DNA of 63,996 nt, filler included, from Stramenopiles sp. TOSAG23-2 (taxonomy: Eukaryota), in assembly GCA_900128395.1 (NCBI GenBank). It is 11 parts of 11 records of this genome, joined end to end, with 100 filler letters (N's around TTAATTAATTAA, not from the genome) between each part and the next. Parts side by side here need not be neighbours in the genome. Positions count along the whole stretch, not along the records: positions 29,361 to 35,114 come from LT650596.1; 10 more parts are not named here. One strand, given 5' to 3'. The notes below the pieces were generated by a model that had not been told where the DNA came from, ran no database searches, and worked only from the letters and a program-made list of their open reading frames with translations. The stretch's first letter is position 1, and each line of letters begins with the position of its first letter. The translations under genes and the position numbers were made by a program. This document shows positions 6,833 to 63,996 of this stretch, in pieces.

Positions 6833-9800
6833 ATGCCACCAAATAATGAATCACAAGATTTAACAACTGAAGAGTTGACATCCACAAAATCAATACCGAG
6901 AAGGAGAAGAAGATTACCACGTACACCAACGCAGTCTCCACGTTCAATTCATCACGATACCCCACCTGCATCACCATCACACAAAACCTGTTTCAACATG
7001 AAAGAACCGATACCATGTATTCAAATTTTATGTCATAACATAGCTACTGAAAAAATTAATAATGAAGATATATCACATGGCGAGACAAAGGTTAAATATG
7101 TAGCAGAATTGCAATTAATAAGATCAAATAATGACAGTAATATTAAAAGATCGAATAGCGACAGTAACATTAGTCACAGTTATAGCACACCCAAAAGGAA
7201 AGGCAAATTGCGCAGATCGTTATCTACGACATCAATGAACTTAAAATTAAGGGAAAACTGGAAAATATCGTTCACATATACCGAATTATGTAAAGCGTAT
7301 CATCATGCTAGACGGGTGCGCAGTGTTGATGTTGTTGAAGATTTAATCAAGGACCAAATACGTAAAGTGAAGAAGCAAAGGCGATTGCCACGTTTAACTG
7401 CCCCACAGCTGCATTCAGGATTAGTGTGCTCTTTACTGTTGCGGTTACTTGGAGTTGCATTTTCCATCCTGCTTTTATATTTAACATATCATCATGCAGA
7501 AAAAACATTACCAAATGATGCTGAAATTTTACAGGCGTCTAGCAATGATTCGGAGTCCAAATTTTTAACAAGTATCTTTTGGAAAGCCATTTTGCACATG
7601 CTTCTGTATGTAATCAGTTTGTATTGGGGTGTAACATCGATTTTTATTGTAAGTAGAATATCCTTTATCTTCTTCCTTACTTAAATTTGATTATCTTCTT
7701 TACACTCGATCATTTGTATCAATATTTATTGACACACACATTCACACATACAAATGCATTACATAACAGTCTTTTGACATTATACGCCTCAACACATGGA
7801 CACCGCGTAAAATGTTTCTGGAACTTTTACAAGATGATGCGCCTTCTATTGCAAATGTTGAAAACATGTTCAATAAATTATTGGATGATCCGAATTTATT
7901 ATCATCAATGACACTTTGTGAATTTCTAGGTGTAAGTAGTCGTTTTGCACATGCTGGCATAACGGTTTTGAAAGAAGGTCGATGCCATAGTGTTTTGTTG
8001 AACAAAACAACGTACGAAAGATCTTTGAAAAGGCGCGGATGTAGATTTCTTTGTTTTACAATGAAGTTTGATTGGAATTTCTGTAATAAAAGAAAGAATA
8101 ATTATTGCGACGGCGAAAAACGTTGGGTTGTATTAACTCCTGAGGGTATTGCATTATTTCATTCGCCGGTTGAAAAAAGCAGTACAAATTACATCTTGTT
8201 GGATCAGACATTTAGCGTATGGATTAATGACCGAGACGAATGCGTTGTTAAAGGTTCTAATGCTGTATTAAATCTCACGTTTAGTGATGCGCACGAAGCT
8301 AGAGATTGGGTGCGGGCAATTAATCAAGTGGCTGTCAAAACCGAATTTACAAAAACTCACAAACATGGTAGTTTTGCACCACAAAGATTGCCATCGCGTG
8401 AAGGAAAAATGCCACAGTATACCGTGACAGGTAAAGTTGTACCGCCATCTCCAAATGGTAATTGTCAATGGCTTATTGATGGAGAGACGACATTTAAAAC
8501 AATGTATAAATATTTACTAACTGCCAAGAAGGAAATTTTCATTTGTGAATGGTGGATGAGTTTAGATATACCATTGGATCGATCATCTGAAAATCCGGAG
8601 GAAACAACATTATTCCATATTATAAAAAAAAAAGCTATAAATGAAAATGTACAAGTGTATGTATTATTGTATAAGGAATTAAGTGGTGTAACCGATGAAA
8701 CGAAGTCTTATACCACAGCTGAGCGTTTAAAACATATGGGATCTGAAAATATACATGTTTTACGCCATCGAAGCAGGTTTTCGATGAATATACTATGGTC
8801 CCATCATGAAAAAATTATATCTATTGACCAACGGGTTGCATTTCTTGGCGGATTGGACATATGTCCTGGCAGATTTGATAATCATAAAAAACAATTATTT
8901 GAAAGAGGTGGAAAAATTATAAATGATAATAGTCAAGATAGAAACACGTTTCCAGATCTTGATTATAGAAATCCAAGGTTATTTGCACCAAGCGAGACTG
9001 AATCAAAAAGAAATGTATTGCCTCGTATGCCATGGAGTGACATTCACGTATGTTTATTTGGTGAAGCCGCTACAGATGTTGTTCGACATGTAGTCGATCG
9101 TTGGAACTATGCACGTATGGTCACTGGTGCATTTAAGCGCATACCTGCAACTATATGTCGAGATAAATGGTGGAAAAAGGAAAACGAGCATGAAGGGAGC
9201 AATGAGTTGGATTTAAATGTACCGAATCTTAGTCCATATCGTTATAATAATAAAAAAAATACATCGTCATCACAGGCAGGAGTATTGTCATCTTGTAAAT
9301 GCCAAATTGTTCGCAGCATATCAAGGTGGAGTGGTGGATGCATAATAGAAACTAGTATACATGAAGCTTACATTAAAGCAATTGAAGAATCGCAACATTT
9401 TATCTACATAGAAAATCAATTTTTTTGCACTGGCTGTGAAGGTGATGAATATCTTGGTAATCGTATAGCCGAAGCATTACGTATCCGCATCAATCGTGCA
9501 CATGAGTATGATGAGCAATTCAGAGTAATGGTTGTATTGCCATTACTGCCGGAAGGAGCTGGAGATTGTCAAAAATCCAACACGCCATTAGTTGCTATGA
9601 TACATTGGCAACTATCGTCTATCAGTCGTTCCAAGCGTTCATTGTTTGAAAAATTACGCCTAGATGGTGTTGATAAACCGGAACAATATATACATTTTTT
9701 TTCACAACGAACATATGATGTTAGGCCAAGTGATGGTAAAGTTTTTACATCGATGATATATGTACATTCGAAAGCTATGATTGTTGATGATAGAATATCT

Positions 9801-15118: not shown

Positions 15119-16174
15119 ATGGCAACTAGAAATTTAACAAGGAAATTTCAAAATTTAAGAAGAGATTCTAAAGGGTCTAGAATTGGGAGTGATAGTGCAC
15201 ATGATGAATGGGAACAAGCAAGACGAACGTTGCCACCATATTGGGTTGATACCGTGGATGAATGCCGTGTTCATATTGATCAAATATCAAAAAAAAGTAA
15301 GTATATACATACGCATATATATATATATATATGTATATGTATGTCATTTAAAACATAAAAAATTTTCTAACACACAAATATATATAAATATAATTTAGTG
15401 CAAGAGCTGGAATCAACACATAATAAACGTTTACGTGTATTTACAGATTCAGAAGAAGCGAAGTTAGAAGGTGAAATTGAAATTATAACAGGTCAAATCA
15501 CCAATTTATTTAGGAAAACAGAAAGAAATTTAAAACGCATTTTCTCCGCGCAATTGCAAAAAGGTACTCATGATGATACGATACGTAAAAATATACAACG
15601 TTCGATGGCAAAACAATTACAAGATTTTTCATTTGATTTTAGAAGAATGCAAAAAGCTTACATGGAAAAGTTAAAAGGTAAAAAGTTAGGTAGTGAAGGT
15701 GATGGATTTGGATTTGGAAATTCAAATTCATCTGATGATAATAATAATAATAGCGATGGGGTAGACACAGGATTTAATGATATGCAATTGGAAATGCTGC
15801 GAAATTATGAAAGCGATATTAATCAACGAGATAAAGAAATTGCAGCCATTGCAAAATCGATTGGTGAATTAGCAACAATATTTAAAGAATTGTCTGTATT
15901 AGTTATTGATCAAGGTACGATATTAGATCGTATTGATTATAATATGGAACAAGTAAATGATAAAGTTGAAAAAGGTGTTGAAGAATTGGAAAAAGCTGTG
16001 AAATATCAAAAATCATCACGACCTGTATGGTGTATTGTAGTATTATTACTAGCAAATGGTATAATGATTTTATTGTTATATTTAAAATTAAAACCAAAAG
16101 ATGAAAATTCATCAAATAATGATAGTAGTGCTAGTGATAATGGAAGAAGAATGTTACGTGGATTAGGATTTTAA
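15119..16174 (+). CDS. STX16: Syntaxin-16 / SYP4-like Qa-SNARE, ~317 aa; exons 15119-15296 and 15399-16174
   Basis: N-peptide MATRNLTRKF, LPPYWVD, SNARE motif IFKELSVLVIDQGTILDRIDYNME, C-terminal TM; phase-1 intron GTAAGT(15297)..TTTAG(15398) with CTAAC branch-like site restores the frame. Confidence 0.92.
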
Positions 16175-16633: not shown

Positions 16634-16729
16634 NNNNNNNNNNNNNNNNNNNNNNNNNNNNNNNNNNNNNNNNNNNNNNNNNNNNNNNNNNNNNNNNNNN
16701 NNNNNNNNNNNNNNNNNNNNNNNNNNNNN
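16634..16729. other. Intra-scaffold gap (96 N, no linker) with duplicated flanks around a (TA)n tract
   Basis: GACACATATAA..(TA)n..ACTATCTTTATTCATCGTTTTTC occurs on both sides of the gap. Confidence 0.9.
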
Positions 16730-18475: not shown

Positions 18476-21400
18476 TTAAATATTAAGGATTCCACCTTTT
18501 GAAATTATAAGATCAATTATCTCTTGTTGAACTAGACTAGTTTTATTTTTTTTTGCCTCATCCAATGGCGTAAATCCAAATTCATCTGTCTTATTAATAC
18601 TATCAAGAGACATATGCTTTAATAAGCATTCAATCACCTCAGTATTGTTTTGGTTATTATATGCTGCTAAATGTAATGCATTAAACCCACTTTTATGTAA
18701 AATATTAGGATCAGCTTCAACCTTTTCAATTAAATATTGAACTATTTGAAAATGATCTTTCCATGCTGCTATCACCAAAGGTGCATATTTATTACCACAA
18801 CTATCTTTACCTTTTTGATTCACATATTCTTTCAATGGCATATTATTATTATTATCATTACTACCACTATTCACATCATCATGCCCTGCAATCAATAATT
18901 TCACATCCTCAAAACGTCCTTTTTCACATGCACATATTATTGGTGTACCTTTTGGAAATTCTTTTTTATATTTCTCCTTTAATTCTTTCAACGCAATTTT
19001 ATTACTATCAATTTTAGCTAATTTCTTTTTTCCCTTTATTTTACTATTATTATTATTGTTATTATCTTGTTGTGGTTGTCCATCAAAATGATTTAAATCA
19101 CCATTATGAACTCCTCCTACATTATTACCATTTTCATCATAACGAATTGCTTTTCCACCTTTTAAGTGTATAAAATCAATTATCTTTTGTTTAATTGAAC
19201 TATCATTATAATCATAACAATTGTCCAATGGTGTGTATTCGTAACGGTTCTTTTTATTAATACTATCATGGGTCATGTGATTTAGTAAACATTCAATCAC
19301 ATCAGTATCCTTTTTGTTATATTGTGCTGCCCAATGTAATGCATTTGACCCATCAATACACTTTGCAGGATTAGCTTCACCTTTTTTAATTAAATATTGA
19401 ACTATTTGAAAATGTTCGCCCCTTGCAGCTATCATTAAAGGTGTCCATTTAGTATAACCATCACTACCTTCAGCAACTTTATTCACATATTCTTTCAATG
19501 CCATACTATTATTACCATCTGTACTACCATTCACATCATGATGGCCTGTAATCAATAATTTCACATCCTCAAAATGTCCTTTTTCACATGCACATACTAT
19601 TGGTGTACCTTTTGGAAATTCTTTTTTATACTTCTCCAGTACTGCCTCTTTAGCTATTATTTCTGAAGAAGGCTTTACATCCTCTTTTTCTGGACGTTTT
19701 CTACCTTTTGACAATTCTTCTCCCCGTTTTCCACCTTGTGAACGTATAAGATCAATGATCTTTCGACTAATTGGACTTACATCGTGATAACAAAAGTCTA
19801 ATGGAGTCTCTCCATTTCTGTCCTGTTTATTAATACTATCAAGAGACATATGCTTTAATAAGCATTTAATCACATTAATACTATCGCTGTTATATGTTGC
19901 AAAATGTAATGCATTCCACCCATCTCTACTTCTTGCAATAGTAGGATCAGCTTCAGCTTGATCAATTAGATATTGGACTATTTGGACATGTTCTTTCGCT
20001 GCAGCTATCATTAAAGGTGTATATCTGTTACCACAACTATCTTTCCCAACTTGATTGACATATTCTTTCAATGGCATATTTTTCAATGGCATATTATTAT
20101 TACCTTCACTATGCCCTGCAATCAATAATTTCACATCCTCAAAACATCCTTTTTCACATGCACATACTATTGGTGTACCTTTTGGAAATTCTTTTTTATA
20201 CTTCTCCAGTACTGCCTCTTTAGCTATTATTTCTGAAGAAGGCTTTACATCCTCTTTTTCTGGACGTTTTCTACCTTTTGACAATTCTTCTCCCCGTTTT
20301 CCACCTTGTGAACGTATAAGATCAATGATCTTTCGACTAATTGGACTTACATCGTGATAACAAAAGTCTAATGGAGTCTCTCCATTTCTGTCCTGTTTAT
20401 TAATACTATCAAGAGACATATGCTTTAATAAGCATTTAATCACATTAATACTATCGCTGTTATATGTTGCAAAATGTAATGCATTCCACCCATCTCTACT
20501 TCTTGCAATAGTAGGATCAGCTTCAGCTTGATCAATTAGATATTGGACTATTTGGACATGTTCTTTCGCTGCAGCTATCATTAAAGGTGTATATCCGTTA
20601 CCACAACTATCTTTCCCAACTTGATTGACATATTCTTTCAATGGCATATTTTTCAATGGCATATTATTATTACCTTCACTATGCCCTGCAATCAATAATT
20701 TCACTTCCTCAAAACGTCCTTTTTCACATGCACATACTATTGGTGTACCTTTTGGAAATTCTTTTTTATATTTCTCCATTAATTCTTTCAAACCATTTTT
20801 ACTACTACTATCATTTTTTGCTAATTTCTTTTTTTTCTTTATTTTTTTACTACATGTACTATTATTGTTATTATTATTATTACTACTACTAGAGCTACTA
20901 CTAAAACCCAACATCATTGTATCAGTTTCATCAACATATGTTCCAACATCCGTCTTTGATGATGATGGTGGTGATGAACCACTGATACCACTATATCCAT
21001 GTATACTGGTACTACTATTATCATCATTACTACTTCCAATCATTTTTTCCAAATCCAATACTTTTAAACTTATAATATCTTTTTTTGCATGTTTAAATGG
21101 CAAACAATTTTCAACACGTAATTTAACACCCAATGGTATTAATATCTCATTTTCATGTGTCACATCAGAAAATTCTTTGATTGATTTACCACATCCAGAT
21201 ATTGAAAATATTGTATTCCATTCGTTTTCATCAGCAAAATCAACCATTACAACATTTCCATCAGTTGAACAACTTGAAAATGCACTCCAAAAAAAACATT
21301 TACCATTTGGATACTCACGGTTTTTAAATTTTTGATTGACAACACGATAAAATGTACCATCTGCTTCATTTGGCAATTTATCCAGTCCGGATAAAAGTAA

Positions 21401-22684
21401 ACGTGCAAAATTAAGCATTTTCTTACGTTCTCTATTATTTCTTAAACATTCATTGAAACGCTTATATAAACAATCTTGTGTATATAAATGTATTGCAGCA
21501 ATTTCATCAATTGTTAATGTTTTATTACGATGTGCATTGACTTTTCTTTTCGCAAATTCTAATGCAACATTTTTACCTGATGTATATTGTTGATCTATAT
21601 TGTTTAAACAGTCTTCAAATGATTTGACTGGAGCATTGTACAAGTCTTTAATCCACTTCTCCGATACTTGTTTTGCAAAACCTGTATCAACTACTTTTCC
21701 TTTTATTTCTTTTAATCCATGTTTATTTAATTCTTGGACTAATTTAGTTGATGTCCATCGTGTAGCTACTTTTGGTAAAAGCATTTTGGCAACCATATTA
21801 CCTAATATTTTATCTCTAATTTTGCATGATCTAATAATATATTTACGCATGTCACCATTCTGATTTGGAGAATTATTTTCAAATCCTGGACAATCGTAAA
21901 TCAACCAACCACATAATAATTCAGCAATTATTAAACCTAATGACCAAACATCTGCTTTCCCATCGATTTCAACACCTGGTTTTATACTTTCTGGTGCTTG
22001 ATATGTTTCATGACCACGTGCTTTTGCTAAAGTTTGTTTCTTGTATGTTTTCATATCATGGCCTGTGAATTGTGCTGCTAAACCCAAATCAATTAATTTT
22101 AAATTTCCATCTTTACCAAAACATATATTATCTTGTTTCAAATCACGATGGACCAAACCTCTGTCATGTAAAAATTCCAACCCTTTGGCAATTTGTAACA
22201 TGTATTGTCGTATTAGTTGCGGTGTCAAAGCAGATTTGATATTTTTATAATATTCATCCATAGTTTCACCACACAACTCCATTTTGATGAAGATATATTT
22301 ATCAGTATCATGTACAATGCCATGATAACCTACAACATGTGTATGACCAGTTGGATTTGTAACTCTAGCTAAGTTTTCAATTTCTTTTGGGACTTTTTTC
22401 ACTGCATCTTGGCCTCGATTTTCTGCCATATCTTCTTTGTCAATGACTTTTACTGCATAAGATTGTTTTTCAGTAATATGAAATACACAATAAACACTTC
22501 CAAAAGCACCGCTTCCAAGTTCAGCATCCGTGACTTTTTCAGCCTTTTTATTACATTTTCTATCTCTGAGTTCAAATTTATTGGTTTCAAAAATCTTCAG
22601 TACACTTTTTTCTCCTTCTGATGTAGCAGTAGTGGTTCTTGTTGTAGAGGAAGAAGACAAAGACGAAGAGGAGAAAGAAGCCAT
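18476..22684 (-). CDS. Ser/Thr protein kinase - mono-ADP-ribosyltransferase (R-S-E) - ankyrin repeat fusion protein, ~1402 aa, intronless
   Basis: Kinase (~22530-21730): LGSGAFGSV, AVK, HRDLKQDN, DLG, APE, DVWSLG. ART (~21560-21055): AAIHLYT, LYKRFNECLR, FYR, FSSCS, HENEILIP. Four ankyrin modules each starting KYKKEFPKGTPI(V/I)CACEKG with (T/A)PLxIAA, NALHxA and TPLD. Confidence 0.9.
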   Translation of the reverse strand: MASFSSSSLSSSSTTRTTTATSEGEKSVLKIFETNKFELRDRKCNKKAEKVTDAELGSGAFGSVYCVFHITEKQSYAVKVIDKEDMAENRGQDAVKKVPKEIENLARVTNPTGHTHVVGYHGIVHDTDKYIFIKMELCGETMDEYYKNIKSALTPQLIRQYMLQIAKGLEFLHDRGLVHRDLKQDNICFGKDGNLKLIDLGLAAQFTGHDMKTYKKQTLAKARGHETYQAPESIKPGVEIDGKADVWSLGLIIAELLCGWLIYDCPGFENNSPNQNGDMRKYIIRSCKIRDKILGNMVAKMLLPKVATRWTSTKLVQELNKHGLKEIKGKVVDTGFAKQVSEKWIKDLYNAPVKSFEDCLNNIDQQYTSGKNVALEFAKRKVNAHRNKTLTIDEIAAIHLYTQDCLYKRFNECLRNNRERKKMLNFARLLLSGLDKLPNEADGTFYRVVNQKFKNREYPNGKCFFWSAFSSCSTDGNVVMVDFADENEWNTIFSISGCGKSIKEFSDVTHENEILIPLGVKLRVENCLPFKHAKKDIISLKVLDLEKMIGSSNDDNSSTSIHGYSGISGSSPPSSSKTDVGTYVDETDTMMLGFSSSSSSSNNNNNNNSTCSKKIKKKKKLAKNDSSSKNGLKELMEKYKKEFPKGTPIVCACEKGRFEEVKLLIAGHSEGNNNMPLKNMPLKEYVNQVGKDSCGNGYTPLMIAAAKEHVQIVQYLIDQAEADPTIARSRDGWNALHFATYNSDSINVIKCLLKHMSLDSINKQDRNGETPLDFCYHDVSPISRKIIDLIRSQGGKRGEELSKGRKRPEKEDVKPSSEIIAKEAVLEKYKKEFPKGTPIVCACEKGCFEDVKLLIAGHSEGNNNMPLKNMPLKEYVNQVGKDSCGNRYTPLMIAAAKEHVQIVQYLIDQAEADPTIARSRDGWNALHFATYNSDSINVIKCLLKHMSLDSINKQDRNGETPLDFCYHDVSPISRKIIDLIRSQGGKRGEELSKGRKRPEKEDVKPSSEIIAKEAVLEKYKKEFPKGTPIVCACEKGHFEDVKLLITGHHDVNGSTDGNNSMALKEYVNKVAEGSDGYTKWTPLMIAARGEHFQIVQYLIKKGEANPAKCIDGSNALHWAAQYNKKDTDVIECLLNHMTHDSINKKNRYEYTPLDNCYDYNDSSIKQKIIDFIHLKGGKAIRYDENGNNVGGVHNGDLNHFDGQPQQDNNNNNNSKIKGKKKLAKIDSNKIALKELKEKYKKEFPKGTPIICACEKGRFEDVKLLIAGHDDVNSGSNDNNNNMPLKEYVNQKGKDSCGNKYAPLVIAAWKDHFQIVQYLIEKVEADPNILHKSGFNALHLAAYNNQNNTEVIECLLKHMSLDSINKTDEFGFTPLDEAKKNKTSLVQQEIIDLIISKGGILNI
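19549..20770 (-). repeat. 570-bp near-identical in-frame tandem duplication within the ankyrin array
   Basis: Sequence at ~19561-20130 matches 20131-20700 with only a few substitutions; module starts at ~20770, 20200, 19630 and 18970. Confidence 0.95.
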
Positions 22685-23978
22685 AATTGTTATTGTTATA
22701 AACTGTATATATTGTAAATCCACTTCCCTGTATTTCTATTTTTAGAACGGGTAGGATACTACATATATGCATATGCAATAGATTAGTAATAATAATAATT
22801 AATAATAATAATAATAATAATTGTATATTATAGTACTAGAGATTTTTTGGATCCAAAAATGTATAATTATTTGTGATCAATCTTTAATGCTAATCGCATT
22901 GTAGAAGATGAGTACAAGTTTAGCTGAGTATAAATAGTAACTATAAGTAAACTATCCAATACATAGCGGCGAAATGCCTATCGCGGGCTGGGCGGGCCTC
23001 AACCGCGAAGGTTTTTTTCGTAAACTATGTTTTTTTGTTTTGTATACTTATAAGTAGTAGCTATATACTATTAATGAAATTAAAATGTATAATATACAAT
23101 AAATTAGTTTTTTTTGATTTTATACATCTTTAGGTAACAGCCGCAATTTTTTTTACTACAGACAAAAAATAAATACTATGATATACTTGTCAATATAATT
23201 TTACAAATAGACAAAAACGGATACACCAATGGATGATTTAGATGATATATTGCTACATAGTATAGCAAACAGTGGCCATTTGTTATTTGAGAATGCTTCC
23301 AACGACTTTCGTCGATGGGTACGCGATCCTGATCAATTGCCTCATTAATTAGATGCTGCTGAAAAAACGGAAGATGAATTACGTGATAAGATTGATCGTA
23401 TANNNNNNNNNNNNNNNNNNNNNNNNNNNNNNNNNNNNNNNNNNNNTTAATTAATTAANNNNNNNNNNNNNNNNNNNNNNNNNNNNNNNNNNNNNNNNNN
23501 NNGTGCAAGTGATATTGAATTAGTTGTTGATGGTCTTGGCGAGTTTCATTTAGATGCATTGAAGAAGAAGAAGAAGAAGAATGGAGAAAGACGATGATGA
23601 TAAAAAATAATAAGAGTGGGTTAAAATATTTTCTAGTCAATATTGATATTAGTATACTAATAAGTACAAATATTAAAAATTTCACTTTTTCATTCTTCGA
23701 ACAAAAAAATTAATAATATAAAAACTATAAAATATATTTTCGAAAGTGAAAACATATATCCAATGTATATATACAATTGACAATCCAACACATATGTAAA
23801 AGTACAATTGAAAAAACAAGATTGATAATAATGTCATTGGAGACCTATATATCATATCATAAGTTATTTTCTTTCAAATCACTCATTTAAGAAAAAAAAC
23901 AATTTCATATATATATATATACATATAAATTAATCTAAATCAAATTGTGAATAATATTAATTTAACAACAATAAAAAA

Positions 23979-28697: not shown

Positions 28698-29362
28698 TTT
28701 TTTTTTTTATAGAGATATGTTAAAAGGTTATTTAACAAGTATGCATTATATAAGATCCATGGAGGATAAAAATAATATAACATACACAAGTTTTGAAACT
28801 TCAAAGGAATATGGAGAAAAAGAAGTAGATCATTATATATTACAATTAGAATCAAATGGATGGAATGTACAACATGTATTTTTCGATGAGAAAAATATGG
28901 GAAAATTGAAGTTATCACAAAGAAGTGATGGCGAGGATTAGTTTTTTTTTTTGATATTTATATATATATATATACGACGATGACTCCTGAACTTTATAGA
29001 GAGAGAGACTGAAAAAAGTTTTTGAGAGAAAGGTGTAAAATTCGTGTAAAAATAGAAACAATAATAATATATCCTAGAGAGAGTAAATTTTTTTTATACG
29101 ACGTGTCATATAATTTATTTAGCACATGCGCGCACATTTCTTTTTCTGGCTGTGTGTTTTCTTTTCTAATTATAACATTTTTTCAATCACCTTTTCTTCT
29201 TCTTCGTCCCTTCTTCATCACTATTATTAGTACATTGTTTTTTCAAATAATATGCAATTANNNNNNNNNNNNNNNNNNNNNNNNNNNNNNNNNNNNNNNN
29301 NNNNTTAATTAATTAANNNNNNNNNNNNNNNNNNNNNNNNNNNNNNNNNNNNNNNNNNNNAT

Positions 29363-32300
29363 GCCTCGTCCTCTTCTTTTTCATATAATGTTGCGGGTTT
29401 TGACGGCGGCGTATTTTATTTAACATGTTCGAATGCCTGTAAAGAAGTAGAAATTCAAGTAAATTTATGCCTTTTTGCAGGCAATGAAGCGGTTAGATAT
29501 GGTGGTGTATTAGCATATCATGCGGATGCTACTACTAATAATGATGGCAATACAAATTTAAAAATTCAATTTGATGAAAGTAAATTTCTTAGTAATATTG
29601 GCAAAGAAAACGGTGGAGTTATTTTTGGCAGTGAGCACATTTCACATATTTTTATAAATTCTTGCCTATTTGCTGATAATACGGCTTGGTATGCTGGGGG
29701 TGGTATATACATTGTGGGACCAGAAATAACCATGTCGACCGATTCTCAAATAGTTCTAAATATATTTGATACAATCTTTTTACGTAATACGGCTACGGTA
29801 TGTTACAATAGCGATACTCAAATAAGTGGTGGTGGTGGAGCAATTTTTATCAGTGACAGTGCTTCTATAATCATATTCAAATCAACATTTTTCAACAATT
29901 CAGCGGTTTCTAGTTCAAGGGGTAATGGTGGTGGAGCAGTATTAATCAATCAAGTTTCAAAACTTGTAACAAATTACATAGACTCGTCAATATTTGAAAG
30001 GAATACTGCAAAAAAAGGCTCAGCATTATCAATCTATGAGAGCAATTTAGAATTGTCAAACGTTTCGTTTATAGAAAATATGATTTCAACAGCCCCTGAA
30101 ATTAGTTCAACTGTAATTGTAACGAAATTAGGTGACGATGATGATGGTAAATACGGAACTATTAAAAACGTTAACTTGTATTCATGTAAATGTAAATTTT
30201 CGATAGAATTAAACAAAGAACCAAATTTTGCACATAAAAAAGTGAGATATTTGGATAGAGAAGAATTTAGAATTATAACAAAGAATTATTTCGATAAAAA
30301 TAAATTGGAAGGTGGCACAGTACTTTTTGATGGGGATGCAGACAGCGAGAAAAAAGTATTAACAATAAATAATTGTAAACTAATTAAGAATCATGCAAAA
30401 AATGGTGCCGGGGTATATATTAAGGGATCCGTAATCGCAAATATATTAAATTCAACAAAAATTTCGACCAATGTGGCGCTATTTGATGGTGGTGGTATAT
30501 TTGTTACACAACATGCACGCGTAAATATTTATCACAGTATTTTAAGTGAAAACATAGCCAAGCGAAATGGCGGTGCAGTTTTGCTTCAAATAAACTCGAA
30601 ATTGATGTCATCAAAAAACAGTATTGTGAAAAACAATTATGCTTTTGGTAATGGTGGTGGTATTTGTGTAAAAGAGGAATCAAACCTTATATTATCTGAA
30701 GCAAACGGTGTTGAAATAGTCTCAAACAAAGCGTTGAAGGGCGGTGGTATTTTTTTTAATGCAATTGAAGAAATCCTTAGTAATTTACATTATACAAATT
30801 TTCCAAGTAACAATACAGCAGTACATGGACCCGATTTATGGGCATTTGATCTTAATGTAAAGCCAATTGGAATTATATGCCCGCAATTTAAATATTTTAA
30901 ATATAGGCTTGGTGTGCCTCAAAAATTTCACAATGCTACAAATTTACTTGAAATTATGTGTCCTACGTGCAAAAATGGAAAAACTGCCGAAGAAAATTCT
31001 TTTCAATGCAATTTCTGTGAATTTGGAAAAGCGGGTATACTGGGGCGATGCAATGATTGCCCTGTAAATTATTATAGTGACAGAAGGGGAGCTTTTTCTT
31101 GCGCCCAATGTCCTAATGGTAGATATGCTAGCGCTGTCAATAATGTATTTTGTCTTGATTCACCAAAACCATGCAAGCCTAGCAATGTTCACCTCACATT
31201 AGTGTCGCATTTTAATGTTTCCGCTGTCAATTTGAATGATGTCAATGTCACTTGGGCATTAGATATTTATGACTGTAATGCAAAACTGCCTGATGGATAT
31301 ATAATTGAAATATCATCTTCAAGAAACTTTCCCAAAAATAAAACAGGTATTGCATATTATCAAAAAATTGTTTTTGGAACTGAGATTCGATTTACAACTT
31401 TACGTGTCAATGACCCGGTAAATAACATGAAATATTTAGCACGAGTACGAGGCTTTATAAACGATACATTAGCAACAAGTAACTGGTCTCCCGCTTCTAT
31501 ACCGTATACTGCTAGCTTTGAATGCAATGTGCATTCATATCTGCATTTAAACTCCATAGACCCAGCAAAATGGTATTGTGCCTCGTGCATGAAGGGTGCT
31601 TCTTGCAAGTCAACAATAGCATCATATACAGCAATCTATGCACAAAAAAGCAACCAATTATACCTAGTAGTAAGTGGCATTAAAGCAAAATTTGGTTATT
31701 GGAGAGCAAGCAAAAACATAACAAATTTTGAGCGCTGCTTATTTCCACCAGCATGTCTTGGTGCCGCTAACCCGGAAGAATTTCAAGGTAAATATGTTGA
31801 TTCTTTGAATGAAAATAGAGATCCATCCTTAATTGAGAACCCAGAAGAAGAATGTTACGTAGATGCGGGGTATAAGGAACAGTGTATTGATGGTGATGGA
31901 AATTCAGAACGTTGTCGTTTATGTATGTTCTGTACAAGTGACATGAGACGTTCATATGCATCCCCTCGATGCAAGTTATGCCCCGAAAGTAATATTTTGT
32001 TAATGGTAGGTATTCTATTGGTTTGCATCTTTGTTTTTGTATTGTTTTTATTGCATGGAATGGGACGAGCAGGTAAAAAGTATACTAGCGCGCATCAAAG
32101 GCGCTTGTTATTATCTTATATGCAAATGAACGCATTGTTAGCTAGCGTTGGAATTGATTGGCCAAATAGTGTTATGACTTTGTTTAACATTCAATCGGCT
32201 ATAAGTACTGTCGGGGATCATGTCTTAAAATTTGATTGTTTATTTCAAAACAATCAACCGGAAGAGCTGGTCATGCAACTTCAATTTATTTATTTAATTG

Positions 32301-33785
32301 CACCATTATGTGTACTTTTACTGTTTTGGGCACTAATATCAATAACAGTGAAGCAAACAAGCGCGCATAGATCGTGGACACGAAATGATTTGCTTATAAA
32401 AGGGACTGTGTTGATGCTATACATGACATATCCATCAATTGTTCGACAGTCTTTTGTTTTGTTTCACTGTTTTAATTTACCAGGTCGCTGTGAAAACGAA
32501 GCAGGGCAAAATTTTCCAGAAATTGCAAAGGAAATGTGTGAAAGTAAGACTATGCAATCTCTTGGTTATACATGGGTAACGGTTGAGAATAAGTTTGGTC
32601 TAGGTGACTATTTGTATGCAGCCCCAACACTGAAATGTTGGACATTTCAGCATTTAGTATATGTTGGTTTAATTGGCGCGCCACATTTAATATTATATGT
32701 AATTGGTTTGCCGTTACTTGGGGCTATTACCCTTTACTCGTTAAAAAAAAAGAATTTATTAAAAGAAGATAGAACCATTTTCTTACTTGGTTTACTCTAT
32801 GATGGTTGTAAGTAAATTCTGTTCCCCTACACCTCAAAAAAAAGATACACCTTCTAACACATCAGTCGTTCATACACTACGCTCCACAGATAAACCAAAT
32901 AGGTGGTGGTGGCAAATTGTTATTTTATATGTAAAAGCGTGTATTGCTTTTGTAGCATATGGTTTCTCTGGTCACCCAGTGTTAGGTTTATTATTTTCTA
33001 TGCTTGTTTTTATGATTTTATGGTTGTTAGAAATATTGTTAAGACCATGGAAACATGAAGGACTATTAAAGGATAAAATAGAATCTAATATACAAACAAC
33101 ACGAAGTCTAAGAAATTCATGGGCACCAATAGCAATGTTAAATCTTCAAACTACTCTTACTAATGCTATGGAAAAAACAACGTTGTCTAAATTTAGTGGA
33201 ATTGCAACGATGCTATGTCTTTTAACAGCATGGTGTGGAATATATTTTCATTTCGAACCTACATGTGCGGTTGCAAACAGTAATACTGCCGTTGGGAATT
33301 TATGTAATATATTTGCATACTCTTTAATAACAGCTCATATAATTTTTATATTTTGGGCACTTAGAACAATTTTTAAAACTCACAGGTTTGAAATAGCAGT
33401 GAAGAAAAAGGCAACAGAAGAAAATAATTTGGTAAAGAATGATTCAAACGATAATATAAATATATTAAATACGAAAAATGGTAGGAAAGAAGGCACGGAA
33501 TTCAAAAAGTTGGACTTGAAAGCAATTGAAATGGTAAAATCTTCAAGACCATATCGTAGTGCAACCAAAGTAACAAAGAAGCTAAAAAAAAGGGTAGCGT
33601 TTGATTTGAATAGGAAAAGGGCAAAAACAAGCAACAATGACAACAATGAAATTGCTCGTTCAACTGGGCTTACTTTCAAGAAACAAATTAAGAACCAGAG
33701 TAATACTGGTGTGACAATTGATGATGATGTTGTTATGTTGCAAAATCCATTGAACCGGTTAAAAAATGTAAAGTTAAATCCATAA
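29363..33785 (+). CDS. Large cell-surface multi-pass membrane protein: GGA(I/V) beta-helix (PMP/pectin-lyase-like) repeats, Cys-rich repeats, FN3-like domain, ~7 TM region; 5' partial; exons 29363-32807 and 32890-33785
   Basis: Repeated NxAxxxGG(A/G)(I/V); CxxCPxGxY repeats; YLARVRG...SNWSP; GYWR, YMQMNALL, YPSIV; splicing gives LLYDGYKPNRWWW. Confidence 0.85.
32808..32889 (+). other. Spliceosomal intron (82 bp), homologous to the intron at 62014-62098; introner-like
   Basis: GTAAGT...TCTAAC...CCACAG; removal restores the frame; aligns end to end with the ABCD-gene intron. Confidence 0.85.
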
Positions 33786-34400
33786 TATAAAAAAATACGA
33801 GAGTAGCTCTTCTATGCTAGTCTTCTGCGGCGTCAGCCATCTCTGGACACCATGGATCTTCCTGGTCCAAATCTCCGTTTTTCCAGAGGAAGCGTCAGCC
33901 TCTATCAGTAATGCTTTTCGTGTAAAAAAAGTATGACCACACCACACTCTTTCAGAATTTTTTCTCTGTGTGTATATTAATAGATATTACACATGAAATA
34001 AGATTTGAGAGAACTATCCTAATTATTTACCCTTTTTTTTCAAAATTTTTTCCGTGTCAGAAAAAACCTTATTGTTCGGCTCTCTTTTGGCACATTTTGA
34101 GAAGTTTCTAGCTACGAACAGTACAGGTACATCATGTGTAGTAGTGTACTGGTACGTACATACTGGTATGTAGCACTTTACAAGAACTACTACCTGTAAA
34201 ATAAAATGACAAGTAAAAAAATATTTATCTTTCAACACATATTTTCAATACAACATGTACATAAAATATAGAGATATATATGTACAAAGAACTTCAAGAA
34301 CAAACAATTCTCGATTGAATCATAGTATATATACGATTGAAAAGAAAACAAGGATAAAAAGGAAAACAATTTTTATATTTTTAAGAAACGATTAAAAACA

Positions 34401-34610
34401 ATGCCAAAAGCAAAAACTAAACGAAGAAGGCGTCGTGTTTAGACATTAAATCGTCAAAGTAATGGGATGAGACCAAATCGAAAACGTTGTGAATGTGGTG
34501 GGATTACTGGGATTTGTGGTACTGCTGATGGTGCAAATGCATGGAGAAAACATATGGGCACTGATCGTCATATGAAATGGGAAGCACAACGATATGGATT
34601 GGATTTTTAA
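34401..34610 (+). pseudogene. Small CxC...Hx5H zinc-finger ORF with an in-frame TAG at codon 14
   Basis: MPKAKTKRRRRRV*TLNRQSNGMRPNRKRCECGG...AWRKHMGTDRHMKWEAQRYGLDF*. Confidence 0.4.
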
Positions 34611-35214
34611 TGATCCGGTTCAATCATTTCTAAAAAAACCTCTGTGTTCTCTAAACATCAAACGACTTGGAAATTGGATGATTTTAATAATGTATCACGT
34701 CGTCTTGAACGCATAGAAAAAAACACATAAAGAGAGAAAACTAATAAGAAAAAAGAGGCAATTCAAAAGGATGTAAGATATACACTTCATCATGCTTTGC
34801 TTTATTTACATATGCATTATAAAAATAAATTCGCACATTGCAGTCGAATCGAAATACCATTTATAAATGGTTCTCATAATTTTGTATTTTTTTATTTAAT
34901 TTTTTTTAAAATATAAAAATGATATCAAAATATGAAATGTGAAATAATAAAAAATAAAAAAAAAGATGATTTATACTTTAGACATGAGGAGGAGTAAAAA
35001 TATTACAAACGTATTGTTAATAATACACCACGTGTGACGTGTGTTACATTTTTTAAAACGAGGCGTGTCTAGATTATTATTATTTTTATTATTTAAATAT
35101 TACGTATATATAACNNNNNNNNNNNNNNNNNNNNNNNNNNNNNNNNNNNNNNNNNNNNTTAATTAATTAANNNNNNNNNNNNNNNNNNNNNNNNNNNNNN
35201 NNNNNNNNNNNNNN

Positions 35215-44264: not shown

Positions 44265-44641
44265 CTTGAAAAAAGGCCTCAAAATATCTTCAAAAAAAAT
44301 ATCTTTATAAATATGGATATTTTAATACAATATCTTTTGTTTATCTCTGAATATTTTGGTCATTTTGGTATTTTATCACGGAGGTTAAGGTGGAGCAGCG
44401 AGAGGAAAAAAAATGATAAAATTAATTGAATTGTGATTGATGGGCACCATTCCAGGCATTGGCAACATTGGCCAAAATAATATATATAGTTATAAATGTT
44501 TAATGTATTTAAATCGATTTCAATTTATATGTATATAAAGTAAAAGTATTAATCTATTCAATTGCCCACCCTTTGCACATACTTGAAGACAAACTACCCC
44601 TCCCCAACAAAATTATAACCACCCCACCTAATCACACAACA

Positions 44642-46108
44642 ATGGCAACGAAAAAACTACGAGTAGCAATTGCACGACATGCAAATAATTTAATTGGTGA
44701 AACCATGTCAATATCTGGTTGGATTCGGACGATAAGAAAACAAGGTAAAATAACATTTTTAGAAGTAAATGATGGCTCATCATTAAATAATATGCAAATT
44801 GTTGCTAATTTTGATCTTGATAAATCTGATAATAACAAAAATAAATCGTTATCCATAGGATCATGTGTAAACATTCAAGGTAACTTAGTGGAAGGGCCAA
44901 AATCACACGGTGAAATGGAAATACAATTAAATAATAAAAATGATTTAAATTTAATAGGAAGTTGCGATGCAGAAACATATCCATTACAGAAAAAATACCA
45001 TTCCGTCGAATTTTTGAGAGATATATTACATTTAAGGCCTAGATCAAACACCGCAGGTGCTATATTACGAGTACGAAGTGAATTAGCTCATGGCATTCGT
45101 AATTTTTTCCATGAACAAGATTTTTTAGAAATTAATACACCAATATTAACATCAAATGATTGTGAAGGTGCAGGTGAAATGTTTGAAATTTTACAAGGTC
45201 ATGATGCAACTAATAATAATAATAACAACAACAACAATCCAAAAATGTATGATTTTTTCAATAACCCAACATATTTAACAGTTTCTGGACAGTTACATGC
45301 AGAAATATTTGCAAGTTCAATGACAAATGTATATACATTTGGTCCAACCTTTCGTGCTGAAAATTCAAATACATCTCGTCATTTAGCTGAATTTTGGATG
45401 GTAGAGCCTGAAATTGCATTTGCAGATTTACAAGATGCAATGTCATTGGCAGAAAATTGTTTAAAATATTCAATTAAACATGTGTTAGAACATTGTACGG
45501 AAGATATTGATTTTTTCAATAAACGTTTAGATAAAAATGTAATGAATCGTTTGACAAAAACAATGGATGAACCATTTCAATATATTTCATATACAGATGC
45601 AATTGATATGTTAAAAAAAGATGTTTCAACTAATCCGAAATTAATATTTGAACATGATGATATAAATTGGGGTATGAATTTACAAAGTGAACATGAAAAA
45701 TATATATCAGAAATAGTATTTAATGGAGCACCAACGGTTATACATCATTATCCAAAACGTATTAAACCGTTTTATATGAAAGAGTCTAAGGAAGAGGATG
45801 GTGGATATGGAGAAACAGTAGAAGCGTTTGATTTAGTCGTACCAAAAATTGGAGAATTAATTGGTGGTAGTGCACGTGAAGATGATTATAATAAGTTAAA
45901 ACAGGCAATGTTGCAACATGAATTATTAGATGAGGGTAATAATGATAATAATGAATTGCAATGGTATTTAGATTTAAGAAAATATGGAAGTGTTCCACAT
46001 GCTGGATTTGGATTAGGATTTGAACGTTTGTTGCAATATGTTAGTGGTATTGGTAATATAAGAGATGTGGTACCGATGCCACGGAGTAGAAATAGTTGTA
46101 ATATGTGA
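44642..46108 (+). CDS. NARS2: Asparagine--tRNA ligase, bacterial/mitochondrial type
   Basis: GWIRTIR, FLEVNDGS, HLRPRSN, DCEGAGEMF, YLTVSGQL, FGPTFRAENSNTSRHLAEFWMVEPE, GELIGGSARE, YGSVPHAGFGLGFER; exact start uncertain (frame open from 44573). Confidence 0.93.
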   Translation: MATKKLRVAIARHANNLIGETMSISGWIRTIRKQGKITFLEVNDGSSLNNMQIVANFDLDKSDNNKNKSLSIGSCVNIQGNLVEGPKSHGEMEIQLNNKNDLNLIGSCDAETYPLQKKYHSVEFLRDILHLRPRSNTAGAILRVRSELAHGIRNFFHEQDFLEINTPILTSNDCEGAGEMFEILQGHDATNNNNNNNNNPKMYDFFNNPTYLTVSGQLHAEIFASSMTNVYTFGPTFRAENSNTSRHLAEFWMVEPEIAFADLQDAMSLAENCLKYSIKHVLEHCTEDIDFFNKRLDKNVMNRLTKTMDEPFQYISYTDAIDMLKKDVSTNPKLIFEHDDINWGMNLQSEHEKYISEIVFNGAPTVIHHYPKRIKPFYMKESKEEDGGYGETVEAFDLVVPKIGELIGGSAREDDYNKLKQAMLQHELLDEGNNDNNELQWYLDLRKYGSVPHAGFGLGFERLLQYVSGIGNIRDVVPMPRSRNSCNM

Positions 46109-58438: not shown

Positions 58439-58659
58439 AGGTATATATATCCAGGCTAGGGACGATGATGTATACAATGATAAATCAACTTTGAAAACAG
58501 TTCCTNNNNNNNNNNNNNNNNNNNNNNNNNNNNNNNNNNNNNNNNNNNNTTAATTAATTAANNNNNNNNNNNNNNNNNNNNNNNNNNNNNNNNNNNNNNN
58601 NNNNNAGATAAAATATATACATATCAATATATATTTCTACTTTTTATTGAATAATTAAT

Positions 58660-59358
58660 ATGTCAGCTATTACTTCAACATCAGCTTTAAGTAAATTAAA
58701 TATTGAAACTTTAAATGAAGGTGATGGCAAAACTTTTCCAAAGAAGGGTGATACTTGTGTTATGCATTATACTGGTACATTAAAAGTTGGTGGCAAGAAA
58801 TTCGATTCATCTAGAGATCGTGGAGAACCATTTTCATTTGATATTGGAGTAGGACAAGTCATTCAAGGGTGGGATGTAGGTGTCATGACAATGTCACTTG
58901 GGCAACGTGTTAAATTAACTATTCCTGCAGATATGGGATATGGTGCTAGAGGTGCTGGTGGTGTGATTCCACCTAATGCAGATTTAATCTTTGATGTTGA
59001 ATTATTAAAAATTGAGCCACCACCTCAACTTGAAATGGAAACTATCAAAGAAGGAGATGGGAAAACGTTCCCAAATCCTGGAGATACATTGACAATGCAT
59101 TATACTGGAACATTGGCTTCAAATGGTAATAAATTTGATTCTTCCAGAGACAAAGGGAAACCATTTGTCTTTCAAATAGGTGTTGGAAGGGTTATTAAAG
59201 GTTGGGACGTTGGTGTAATGAAAATGTCACTTGGTCAACGAGTTAATTTGAAAATTCCATCTAAAATGGGATATGGTGCTAGAGGTGCTGGTGGAGTTAT
59301 ACCACCTAATGCAGATTTAATCTTTGATGTTGAATTATTGAAAATCCAAAGAAGATAA
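58660..59358 (+). CDS. Double-domain FKBP-type peptidyl-prolyl isomerase (two FKBP12-like domains)
   Basis: Two copies of GDGKTFP...MHYTGTL...KFDSSRD..PF...VI(Q/K)GWDVGV...[26 protein letters not shown], with many synonymous differences between copies. Confidence 0.95.
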
Positions 59359-59905
59359 ATTTAAAAAAGACGGAGGGGAGAAGGATGTTCGTTGTGTAGG
59401 AGAGAAAGAATTTTAAATTTTTAAATAAAATATACAGAGAGTGTGTGTTTTATAATAATATACATTATACTAGTATTATTTTTATAAAATATGCAATTAA
59501 TAATTATTATAAAAATATTTTAATAAATTTAAAATAGTTTTTGTTTCTTCATGTGTAAAAATCGAAATAAATTGGAAAAGTGATTTCTTGTTAATATAGA
59601 GATTTGCATTTCATCAACCAATATTTGAGAATACGAATTTCGTATAATATTTTATAAAAAAAGTAAAAAAAAGGACGATCTGGGGAATATAATTGGAAAT
59701 GTGTGTAAATGCATGAAATTGTAAAATATTTTTATTTGTGATGGATTACTTAGGCTAAATGTACACACACGTACAACTTTACACAAAAAAATGATTCATA
59801 TTTCCCAGTGTCATTATTTTAATAATACACACGCACTAAAACCACATTGCTCTCTCTCTCTCTCCCTCTGTCTCTCTCTCTCTCGCACACACACACACCT
59901 CTTTT

Positions 59906-60808
59906 TTACTCCATTCCATCTCTACTGTAAAATCCTCTTAAATTAATATTATCCGATGCTTGTCTTACAGTAGCGACACATAAAGGGCATGTTGAATGAT
60001 CTTTCAGCCATTTATCTATACAACTTAGATGAAAATAATGTTTACATGGAAAATTACGAATTGGATGTTCTTTTTCAATAGCTTCTAAACATATAGTGCA
60101 TTCAATTCCATTTGGTATGATCTCATATGCTTTAACAATTGGACTAGATAAAATGACAATTTGACTATCCATTGCTCCATTCTCATCAGATAAAAATTGT
60201 GGAGTCAATTCAATTCGCTCGGATACTAAACGTGTCATGTAACTTAAATCGGATGATATGTACATTCCATATACAAGGCCAATTTTTAAACATGTAACCG
60301 CAACAGCAAAAACTAATAAAAATTCTGTAAGTAAGATAACATGGATTGGTAAACATTTTTCCACTTCATCTTTTGTACTACCATTATTAATTGATAGCAA
60401 TATGAAACCCGCCATAATTAAAAGTACAATACAAGGTATCAATATTTTATGACAATTAATAAACATATATACGTAGCGTTTAATTTTTGTATCATTACGC
60501 TTTTGTATAGCATTTTGCCATTCATTGACACTAATATGATGTATGATTCGAAACAATAATAAAACAATTGTATATATAATTAACCATACTTCATAATAAA
60601 TACAATAATCATATGTCTTACTTTTGCTGTAATGATATAATGAATAAATTAGAAGTGCAAACGTAAATATTAATAAGACACTAATACCACCACCTTGCTT
60701 TTTCAAACTTTGAAATAATTTCCATTCCGGTGCAGTGGACGTTATAATTCGATCATTGCTATTGTGACGGGGATGATGATTATTACCAGGCACTTTGATT
60801 ATTGGCAT
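59906..60808 (-). CDS. Membrane-anchored RING-H2 E3 ubiquitin ligase
   Basis: CTICLE...FPCKHYFHLSCIDKWLKDHSTCPLC preceded by about 4 TM segments. Confidence 0.9.
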   Translation of the reverse strand: MPIIKVPGNNHHPRHNSNDRIITSTAPEWKLFQSLKKQGGGISVLLIFTFALLIYSLYHYSKSKTYDYCIYYEVWLIIYTIVLLLFRIIHHISVNEWQNAIQKRNDTKIKRYVYMFINCHKILIPCIVLLIMAGFILLSINNGSTKDEVEKCLPIHVILLTEFLLVFAVAVTCLKIGLVYGMYISSDLSYMTRLVSERIELTPQFLSDENGAMDSQIVILSSPIVKAYEIIPNGIECTICLEAIEKEHPIRNFPCKHYFHLSCIDKWLKDHSTCPLCVATVRQASDNINLRGFYSRDGME

Positions 60809-61413
60809 TATTCTTGTTTGTTATTATCCGTGTTTCGTATATTAAAAATATGTGTATATATATATCCCATATATGTATCTTCATTCACAGTACACATAAT
60901 CGTCTATCTAACCCATCAAAATGTGGACACACCTTCAAGGATGAGGAGAGAGGGCGTGTGTGTGTACTATAAGCACTAAATACAATAGTGCAAAAAGACT
61001 TCGCAGAACAAATTATAATAAAATTATTATAAAAAAATCATCATCTGATACGGTAAAATTTAGTACAGCACATCACCCAGATCACAGAGAGGATTCTTGC
61101 GATATGTCCATGTGCCGTCAATTTTAAGGATCACGCGATGTGACAAACAAACTAACAAACCAAACTAGCCTCAAATAGGAATCTTAGTATACAAATATAT
61201 ATATACTACTAAATATATTTTAAAAAGATCATCCATATTAATATATATATATATAATTAATATCTTATTTTTAATAAGAAGTTATATGTCATAGATCTAT
61301 ACCTGGTACATATAAAAAATATAATAATGAAACAACATTTTTTTTTGAATTTTGCATTTTAATCATTTAAAGATAAAAAGTGAAATCGTCGTGCATTATT
61401 ACACTTCATCAAG

Positions 61414-63442: not shown

Positions 63443-63996
63443 ATATATTTTATACTACGAAGTTCGTATATAATGTGAGATGACGAAGGAGAAAATAAAA
63501 AAAAGGCAATTGTTAAAAAATATCATATATACTCGTATATATTAGAAATACGGGATAAAAATAAAACTCGCTTTTAAATTAAATGATTGGTTAAAAAATC
63601 TAAAGTGTTATATAATAATTTTACACCTCTTTTATACGACCGTCGTATTTTAAGAAAATATAATATATATGACCCACCTTCGATAAGATCAGGAGGAATA
63701 TAAAAAAGACCATAATATTACATAGTACCTAGTTTTACATAATTTTTAATGGTATTTATATGCTATTTCTACATATTTTTAAGCTCTTTCCGTATTATCA
63801 TGTCTCTGAGGAGCAAAAAATTTTCAACGTTATAATCTTGGAAACTAGATCGATTCACTATCTATAATTTTATGCCGGAAATCGTCATATAATCGTTTAT
63901 GCCTGTATAGAGTTTTGAAACACGAAAATGAAAAAAAACATGTTTACGAACAACCATGCCCTTCAAAAAAAAATATTAAAAAGTTAAACACAAACA

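Follow-up and report, generated by a model that had tools for sequence, protein, structure and literature searches.

A family of short, self-contained introns, very likely introners, in unrelated genes of an uncultured marine protist

The origin of new spliceosomal introns is a long-standing question, and introners are, to our knowledge, the sole known source of bursts of intron gain. Two introns of Stramenopiles sp. TOSAG23-2 (GenBank assembly GCA_900128395.1), hereafter introns A and B, raise this question at a small scale: are they copies of one inserted sequence and, if so, by which route did it spread? The stretch of DNA analyzed here, referred to as the window (positions 1-63996), is composed of 11 scaffolds of about 5.75 kb each, arranged by descending length and separated by spacers of the form N44-TTAATTAATTAA-N44, with a single internal run of N at 16634-16729. 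Genes on either side of a spacer are not linked. The spacer positions place intron A in the scaffold at 29361-35114 and intron B in the scaffold at 58606-63996, hence on different scaffolds, as stated in the sequence-only reading that first brought them together; the sequences, coordinates and lengths it gave for the two introns match the window exactly.

Intron A (32808-32889, plus strand) is 82 nt long and follows an upstream exon of 3445 nt, which sets it in phase 1. It extends from the donor GTAAGT (32808-32813) to the acceptor CAG (32887-32889) and holds the branch motif TCTAACA at 32853-32859, the branch A being located 31 nt before the last base. Intron B (62014-62098, plus strand), of 85 nt, shares the donor GTAAGT and the acceptor CAG, has its branch motif TCTAACA at 62059-62065 and is in phase 0, the preceding exon closing a codon at 62013; the different phases first attributed to the two introns are thus correct. 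Their global alignment displays 67 identical positions over 89 columns, with a score of 38. As a control, B was shuffled 5000 times with GTAAGT and CTAAC in place and the final CAG fixed; the shuffled sequences scored 3.9 on average (sd 4.6, maximum 22) and none of them attained 38, so that the similarity noticed at first sight stands clearly above such signal-preserving controls. Compared with a profile model of the family described below, intron A reached 74.3 bits (E 4.6e-22) and intron B 68.6 bits (E 2.7e-20), with 85% and 86% identity to the majority consensus, respectively. Searches of the whole window with the profile revealed no copy besides these two (filters off, next best E 0.84). 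The introns of the PLD gene (7649-7769) and of the syntaxin gene (15297-15398), initially described as different from A and B, indeed score -8 to -13 against them and have no match to the family profile, which leaves unsupported the idea that they are decayed members of the family. Intron A also holds an internal CAG (32863-32865), 7 nt past the branch A, whose use as acceptor would yield an in-frame intron of 58 nt and eight additional codons; it is probably too near the branch site to be used.

The two host genes encode different proteins. Gene A, with an upstream exon at 29363-32807 (plus strand, open at the scaffold start) and a downstream exon at 32890-33785 (stop codon included), whose first two bases finish a split Tyr codon, encodes according to Pfam a large membrane protein with Chlamydia-PMP-type repeats (PF02415) and an ephrin-receptor-like Cys-rich domain (PF07699). 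Homologues of this protein, P0223-P0237, were retrieved, and one metagenome contig (L032) corresponds to locus A itself and is identical to it. Gene B, formed by exon 1 at 61414-62013 (plus strand, presumed start codon at 61414) and exon 2 at 62099-63442 (stop codon included), encodes an ABC half-transporter of the ABCD type (peroxisomal type). Exon 1 covers positions 14-163 of the ABC_membrane_2 profile, ending five residues before the junction, and the same profile resumes in exon 2 at position 173, at residue 5 past the junction, followed by ABC_tran. An allelic copy of locus B was also found (L021).

Splicing of intron B is directly documented by RNA. A contig from polyA RNA (run X15, record 12) joins 62012 to 62098; the 85 nt that it skips have GT..AG ends, and the contig extends over 129 and 210 nt on the two sides of the junction with one mismatch. 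As exactly 85 nt are omitted, intron B is spliced exactly. Excision of intron A restores the motif LLYDG-Y-K..WWWQ, conserved in four homologues, and removal of the other copies described below is supported by open reading frames (ORFs) and by the continuity of Pfam profiles. Two polyA-RNA runs, X15 and X16, each also contain one contig over positions 62035-62073 of intron B, with deletions of 1 nt and 3 nt. These contigs are probably unspliced family sequence from other copies and may represent retained introns, pre-mRNA or DNA carry-over.

Both positions were also found uninterrupted in relatives, where the introns had been expected to be lacking. A contig about 80% identical to scaffold B on both sides of the site (run X2, record 28, the run type being marked DNA as a guess) counts 55 letters between 62006 and 62147 compared with 140 in the window, a shortfall of 85 nt which means that intron B is exactly absent there. 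At site A, the homologues P0224 and P0225 are continuous, with residues 1588/1590 and 940/942 flanking the split Tyr; they are gene calls on metagenome contigs, 34-36% identical to gene A, and may be paralogues. These sequence comparisons indicate that positions A and B are not ancestral. No intron-less joint of high identity was observed at site B in the DNA runs X1 and X2 (one site, two runs). The ORF of another homologue, P0223 (34-44% identical to gene A), stops two residues (VR, stop) past LLYDG. This end would fit a phase 0 intron one base upstream, through parallel gain or sliding, or else a truncation by chance.

The existence of only two similar introns in 64 kb had led to the prediction of further copies, and these were found in public data. 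Metagenome contigs were scanned with a single degenerate 21-mer pattern taken from the block shared by A and B at their 3' end. The 71 loci retrieved comprise 60 full introns, two cut at contig ends, one partial copy reduced to the 3' part (L012) and eight chance hits on GC-rich contigs. All 60 full introns align with A and B from GTAAGT through CAG; grouped by their flanks, they represent 45 distinct sites, all in sense orientation. Since these sites are located on metagenome contigs, they may mix closely related species and do not give the copy number of one genome. The family profile revealed five copies unmatched by the pattern in the 700-nt flanks of these loci, all co-oriented with the first copy: L035 168-259, L014 889-959 (at a site shared with L051), L053 1061-1142, the diverged copy L006 123-225 and a partial copy in L058. 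The possibility that L006 and L008 are orthologues with one common intron was rejected. Three candidate introns foreign to the family were also present in the flanks (L023, L037 and L039). We infer that the family accounts for a large share of the few introns of its host, as it comprises two of the five introns resolved in the window by the sequence-only reading and 4-5 of the 7-8 additional ones observed in the flanks. Exact-pattern scans returned no occurrence in viral contigs (3' and 5' patterns, none for either) or in prokaryote genome contigs (mid-element pattern), which is weak evidence of absence.

Part of scaffold B is contained in 20 public runs from 14 studies, including a small run from 2015 which is probably the source, six runs of polyA RNA and numerous marine metagenomes. 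Contigs of four runs were placed on scaffold B at a likeness of at least 80%. Over intron B the summed contig depth reaches 102-703 in X1 and 139-314 in X2, compared with about 6 and about 17-22, respectively, next to the intron. Nine contigs of X2 depart from the reference at 62092, having CCACAG and then dissimilar flanks. This pile-up, of contigs from the probable source run and from a seawater metagenome, shows that many contigs bear the intron in other contexts. The depths were rejected as a measure of copy number because each is summed over several contigs and the sample is amplified or mixed. Depth also rises at the ends of scaffold B (63646-63996 and 58606-58785), with maxima of 6020 in X1 and 1372 in X2, where another repeat probably ended the assembly, and a further peak at 61126-61305 corresponds to AT-rich simple sequence.

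The genes interrupted at the 45 sites are unrelated to each other. When the element is deleted, a sense frame of at least 100 codons, or reaching the end of the locus, is obtained on both sides at 33 sites; at the remaining 12 the shorter arm is 18-95 codons long, the weakest case being L023 with 18 and 21. Among 82 flanking ORFs from 44 loci, Pfam families were identified at 30 loci and differ from locus to locus. They include aminotransferase, HAD hydrolase, MFS, ankyrin, Myb, Rieske, sulfatase, amidase, ArgJ and FAD monooxygenase, as well as ABC_membrane, SDR, enoyl-CoA hydratase, RPE65, PhyH, WD40, DAG kinase, acyl-CoA oxidase and 7tm_3 with kinase. Several profiles continue over the junction: FAD_binding_3 from position 157 to 160, ABC_membrane from 105 to 107, CTP_transf_1 from 160 to 173 and ABC_membrane_2 from 163 to 173. 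Comparison of the flank proteins all against all with blastp gave one weak pair, L032 (gene A) and L033, with introns at different positions. The flanks are unlike each other from the first exon base, the similarity ending at the intron borders. One of the host genes (L065) encodes a 7tm_3 domain (class C GPCR-like) upstream of the intron and a protein kinase domain downstream.

The copies share a compact organization. Their length ranges from 74 to 97 nt, with a median of 83 and a commonest value of 79. The donor is GTAAGT at 36 of the 45 sites, the others being GTACGT (5), GCAAGT (2), GTTCGT (1) and GTAGGT (1). The branch motif TCTAACA is present in 36/45 copies, the distance from the branch A to the 3' end is 32 nt in 30/43, and CCACAG forms the last six bases in 36/45. 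The introns contain 9% G and 28% C, compared with 19% G and 15% C in the flanks. Outside the search pattern (the 5' two-thirds), identity averages 72% between pairs and 83% to the majority consensus, a value which fits the large and moderately old family anticipated from A and B. One copy (L039:701-779:-) is 99% identical to the consensus over its whole length. Variants of the middle segment recur like subfamilies, an ACACC type being shared by nine copies, among them A, while 12 copies, among them the allele of B, have a GATATCC type. Copies also change by small length events, as L036:701-797:- holds an internal (TA)n run, and the 5' end of L040:701-795:- is duplicated over 15 nt, a duplication not found in L066 at the same site and thus an indel polymorphism between metagenomes. 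At same sites across metagenomes the divergence is at most 2%; an ungapped comparison showed as much change at each codon position as at the others, a sign of alignment shifts. No stable fold was predicted in five copies (0 to -5.9 kcal/mol, z -0.92 to +1.21), no consensus base pair was found in the 45 aligned copies, and Rfam gave no match on the window. The GC content of the introns (33-43%) exceeds that of third codon positions in the host ORFs (16-37%), implying that mutational equilibrium has not been reached and that the copies are either young or under constraint. The candidate introns outside the family, a small sample of five (7649-7769, 15297-15398 and those of L023, L037 and L039), are 84-121 nt long.

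Taken together, each copy is exactly one intron with its own strong donor, branch site and acceptor, G-poor and unstructured, and the copies are located in sense orientation within the coding sequences of many unrelated genes, where splicing restores the reading frame exactly. A and B are very likely two copies of one short, self-contained family of spliceosomal introns, i.e. introners, and we infer that the copies arose through repeated insertion of one sequence, not through gene duplication or convergence. The introner interpretation proposed from the two window copies is therefore supported by the further copies, by the shuffled controls and by the non-ancestral positions, which all agree, and no evidence against the family was found in these analyses.

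The insertion sites bear on the route of spread. The target-site duplications (TSDs) and terminal inverted repeats (TIRs) reported missing at A and B are indeed absent there. Over the 45 sites, no TSD of 3-9 bp was found, the intron ends being constant and the exon flanks variable; no repeat of at least 3 nt spans the junction at 41 sites, and the other four have 3-4 nt. Comparison of the first 20 nt of L039 with the reverse complement of its last 20 nt gave no match as TIR. Both splice sites lie within the conserved unit, so neither was borrowed from a duplication. When about 124 kb were searched with the family profile, neither a longer relative nor an antisense or intergenic copy was found, in a small, gene-dense sample which makes this weak evidence.

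These features could reflect a spread at the RNA level. In this mechanism, the RNA of an excised intron would re-enter another transcript by reversed splicing, the intron-bearing transcript would be copied into complementary DNA (cDNA), and the cDNA would recombine into the gene ("intron transposition"). Such a route would explain the whole-intron units, their exact ends and the lack of TSD, terminal repeats and coding capacity, and the roughly 50 copies, every one genic and in sense orientation, were counted in its favour. We consider this succession of reverse splicing, reverse transcription and recombination tentatively, at somewhat short of an even chance, and as slightly likelier than insertion of DNA leaving no TSD. 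The more specific proposal that a minimal, G-poor and unstructured intron of 79 nt reverse-splices into other mRNAs, and thus represents natural transposition of a spliceosomal intron via RNA, is unlikely, if still worth considering.

Two observations weigh against the RNA-level route. No upstream exon ends in AG (0/45), and a preference for protosplice sites (AG|G) is absent from the 45 sites, with only a weak G signal at -1 (16/45) and +1 (15/45). No 3' positional bias was seen among the 35 usable sites, nine of which lie within 200 codons of the upstream ORF limit and seven within 200 codons of the downstream limit, in a test that is crude as the ORF limits may be unseen introns. Phases 0, 1 and 2 are unevenly represented (9, 13 and 23 of the 45 sites; chi-square p 0.03). 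The orientation of the copies does not decide between the routes: the 45 sites and the five copies found independently of the pattern are all co-oriented with their host genes, but a restriction to sense orientation and exons is also expected from selection after insertion at the DNA level, and a search that relied on an intact 3' splice region exaggerates it. Copies found independently of the pattern were absent from non-ORF DNA (0/7, with about 2.6 expected for an ORF fraction of 73%, P about 0.07).

The same introner family could accordingly have moved as DNA, either as a non-autonomous element mobilized in trans by an enzyme that leaves no TSD and requires no TIR, or by capture at DNA breaks, the sense copies in exons being the only survivors as those which are spliced out. 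The lack of protosplice preference and 3' bias, which an RNA or cDNA route would more readily predict, suits this explanation, as does the fact that surveys label many introner families "direct insertion" or unknown (PMC12130899). The missing TIR, TSD, longer relatives and intergenic or antisense copies speak against it, with the limited weight noted above. Movement as DNA is a serious competitor, to which we give a little less credit than to the RNA-level route.

It is improbable that a function of the intron RNA, as a small RNA or a regulatory element, keeps the copies alike and makes the family seem younger than it is. Constraint of this kind could account for an intron GC content above that of synonymous sites, and the 3' block looks very uniform, a block which is however also the search pattern; the copies found independently of the pattern vary in it. 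The absence of an Rfam family, of a stable fold and of consensus pairs also argues against such a function, which in addition leaves the spread into 45 unrelated genes unaccounted for. Almost no credence can be given to shared splicing signals or convergence without mobility in an intron-poor genome with strict signals, even though GTAAGT recurs in other introns of the host and TTCTAACAC is present in that of syntaxin, as this is refuted by the signal-keeping shuffles, by a likeness over the whole 79 nt at 45 sites and by the PLD and syntaxin introns escaping the family profile. Inheritance of one intron by paralogous or segmentally duplicated hosts is just as implausible: L032 and L033 belong to one membrane-protein superfamily, yet their introns are differently placed, and the unrelated flanks, the diversity of Pfam families and the arrest of similarity at the intron borders refute it for 44 of the 45 sites.

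DNA-transposon introners carrying TSD and/or TIR are reportedly described by Huff et al. in 2016. Introners are defined as sets of introns that lie in unrelated genes and are highly similar to each other (PMC9860276, PMC12768974) and were detected in 201 of 8,716 genomes, mostly of aquatic protists and fungi (PMC12130899). The closest known system in behaviour is the IE-C class of introner elements of Micromonas RCC299, with a mean length of 67 nt and 221 copies (Verhelst et al. 2013, PMC3879977). Both occur in marine picoeukaryotes as short whole-intron units with a conserved branch motif, at novel positions in unrelated genes, in sense orientation only within transcribed regions, and both can be traced in ocean metagenomes. 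The likeness concerns behaviour only, not sequence: the branch motif is GACTGACG in Micromonas and TCTAACA here, and Micromonas is a green alga whereas the present host, which we guess to be a probably heterotrophic stramenopile, is AT-rich and intron-poor, unlike Micromonas.

As regards mechanism, the family falls among the introners labelled "direct insertion" or left unclassified in the surveys by Gozashti et al., which likewise have no TSD, TIR or coding capacity and are assigned to no mechanism (PMC9860276, PMC12130899). In supplementary file 8 of PMC12130899 the direct insertion label is given to 125 rows, and about 72% of introner families are unclassifiable in that survey. Introners of Alternaria alternata have neither TSD nor TIR (PMC9860276), and they, as well as family 1 of Parmales sp. 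scaly parma, carry both splice sites as do the present copies. The host described here, an aquatic unicellular organism, corresponds to the setting enriched for introners in these surveys, which used annotated assemblies. Within the supplements of PMC12130899, which may contain no sequences, two 13-nt motifs of the family have no occurrence, and in its tables "uncultured", "stramenopile" and "MAST" name no species. Literature searches linking introners with MAST-4, marine, single-cell, Tara Oceans and MAG terms returned no description of this family, a prior description being possible.

In Aureococcus, Symbiodinium and Chrysochromulina, introners co-opt one splice site from a TSD of 3-9 bp and/or possess TIRs (PMC9860276). 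These introners also belong to marine protists and generate introns on a genomic scale; in the present family, in contrast, TSD and TIR were tested and are both absent. The introner-like elements of fungi resemble it in being numerous, similar introns scattered over unrelated genes, whose splice signals are standard and which lack the hallmarks of transposons; they are reported to become ordinary introns through decay (Collemare et al. 2013, PMC3609843). They are longer than regular introns and show stable predicted structures with compensatory changes, whereas no structure is predicted for the family described here, which at 82-85 nt is shorter than the PLD and syntaxin introns of the window (121 and 102 nt).

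The organism hosting this family is an AT-rich, intron-poor, uncultured marine protist. The close relatives of its encoded proteins are environmental only; a search with the PLD protein gave one EukProt match at 54%, the best named full-length matches being oomycetes at 36-37%. Its GC content and scarcity of introns resemble the values given for single-cell genomes of MAST-4A (33.9% GC and 0.56 introns per gene, PMC5269757), and by this analogy our guess is a MAST-4A-like stramenopile. Two other genes of the window have unusual features. An asparaginyl-tRNA synthetase gene (44513-46105, plus strand) is of bacterial type, with Parachlamydia and other Chlamydiae as best named matches (about 51%); its matches in a protein atlas are bacterial clusters only, its closer relatives are environmental only, and it encodes either an organelle-targeted enzyme or the product of an old transfer. 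In an ORF of 1419 residues (18479-22735, minus strand), a protein kinase domain occurs together with an ART domain (NAD:arginine ADP-ribosyltransferase) and numerous ankyrin repeats.

Intron gain by reverse splicing has been proposed for decades and, as far as we know, never shown in nature. The family described here is a very simple introner, of about 79 nt, consisting of splice signals alone without transposon hallmarks. This kind of element is already well known, and the novelty lies in its occurrence as a new family in an uncultured marine protist, two similar introns in 64 kb having sufficed to predict a genome-wide family. As many metagenomes and polyA metatranscriptomes from the ocean contain the host, its insertions, empty sites and splicing efficiency can be read from public data, and such presence and absence data would separate a spread at the RNA level from one at the DNA level. 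If transposition via RNA is confirmed, roughly half of the introns in an ocean protist that is both abundant and uncultured would stem from it, and each insertion could be tracked across global metagenomes and metatranscriptomes.

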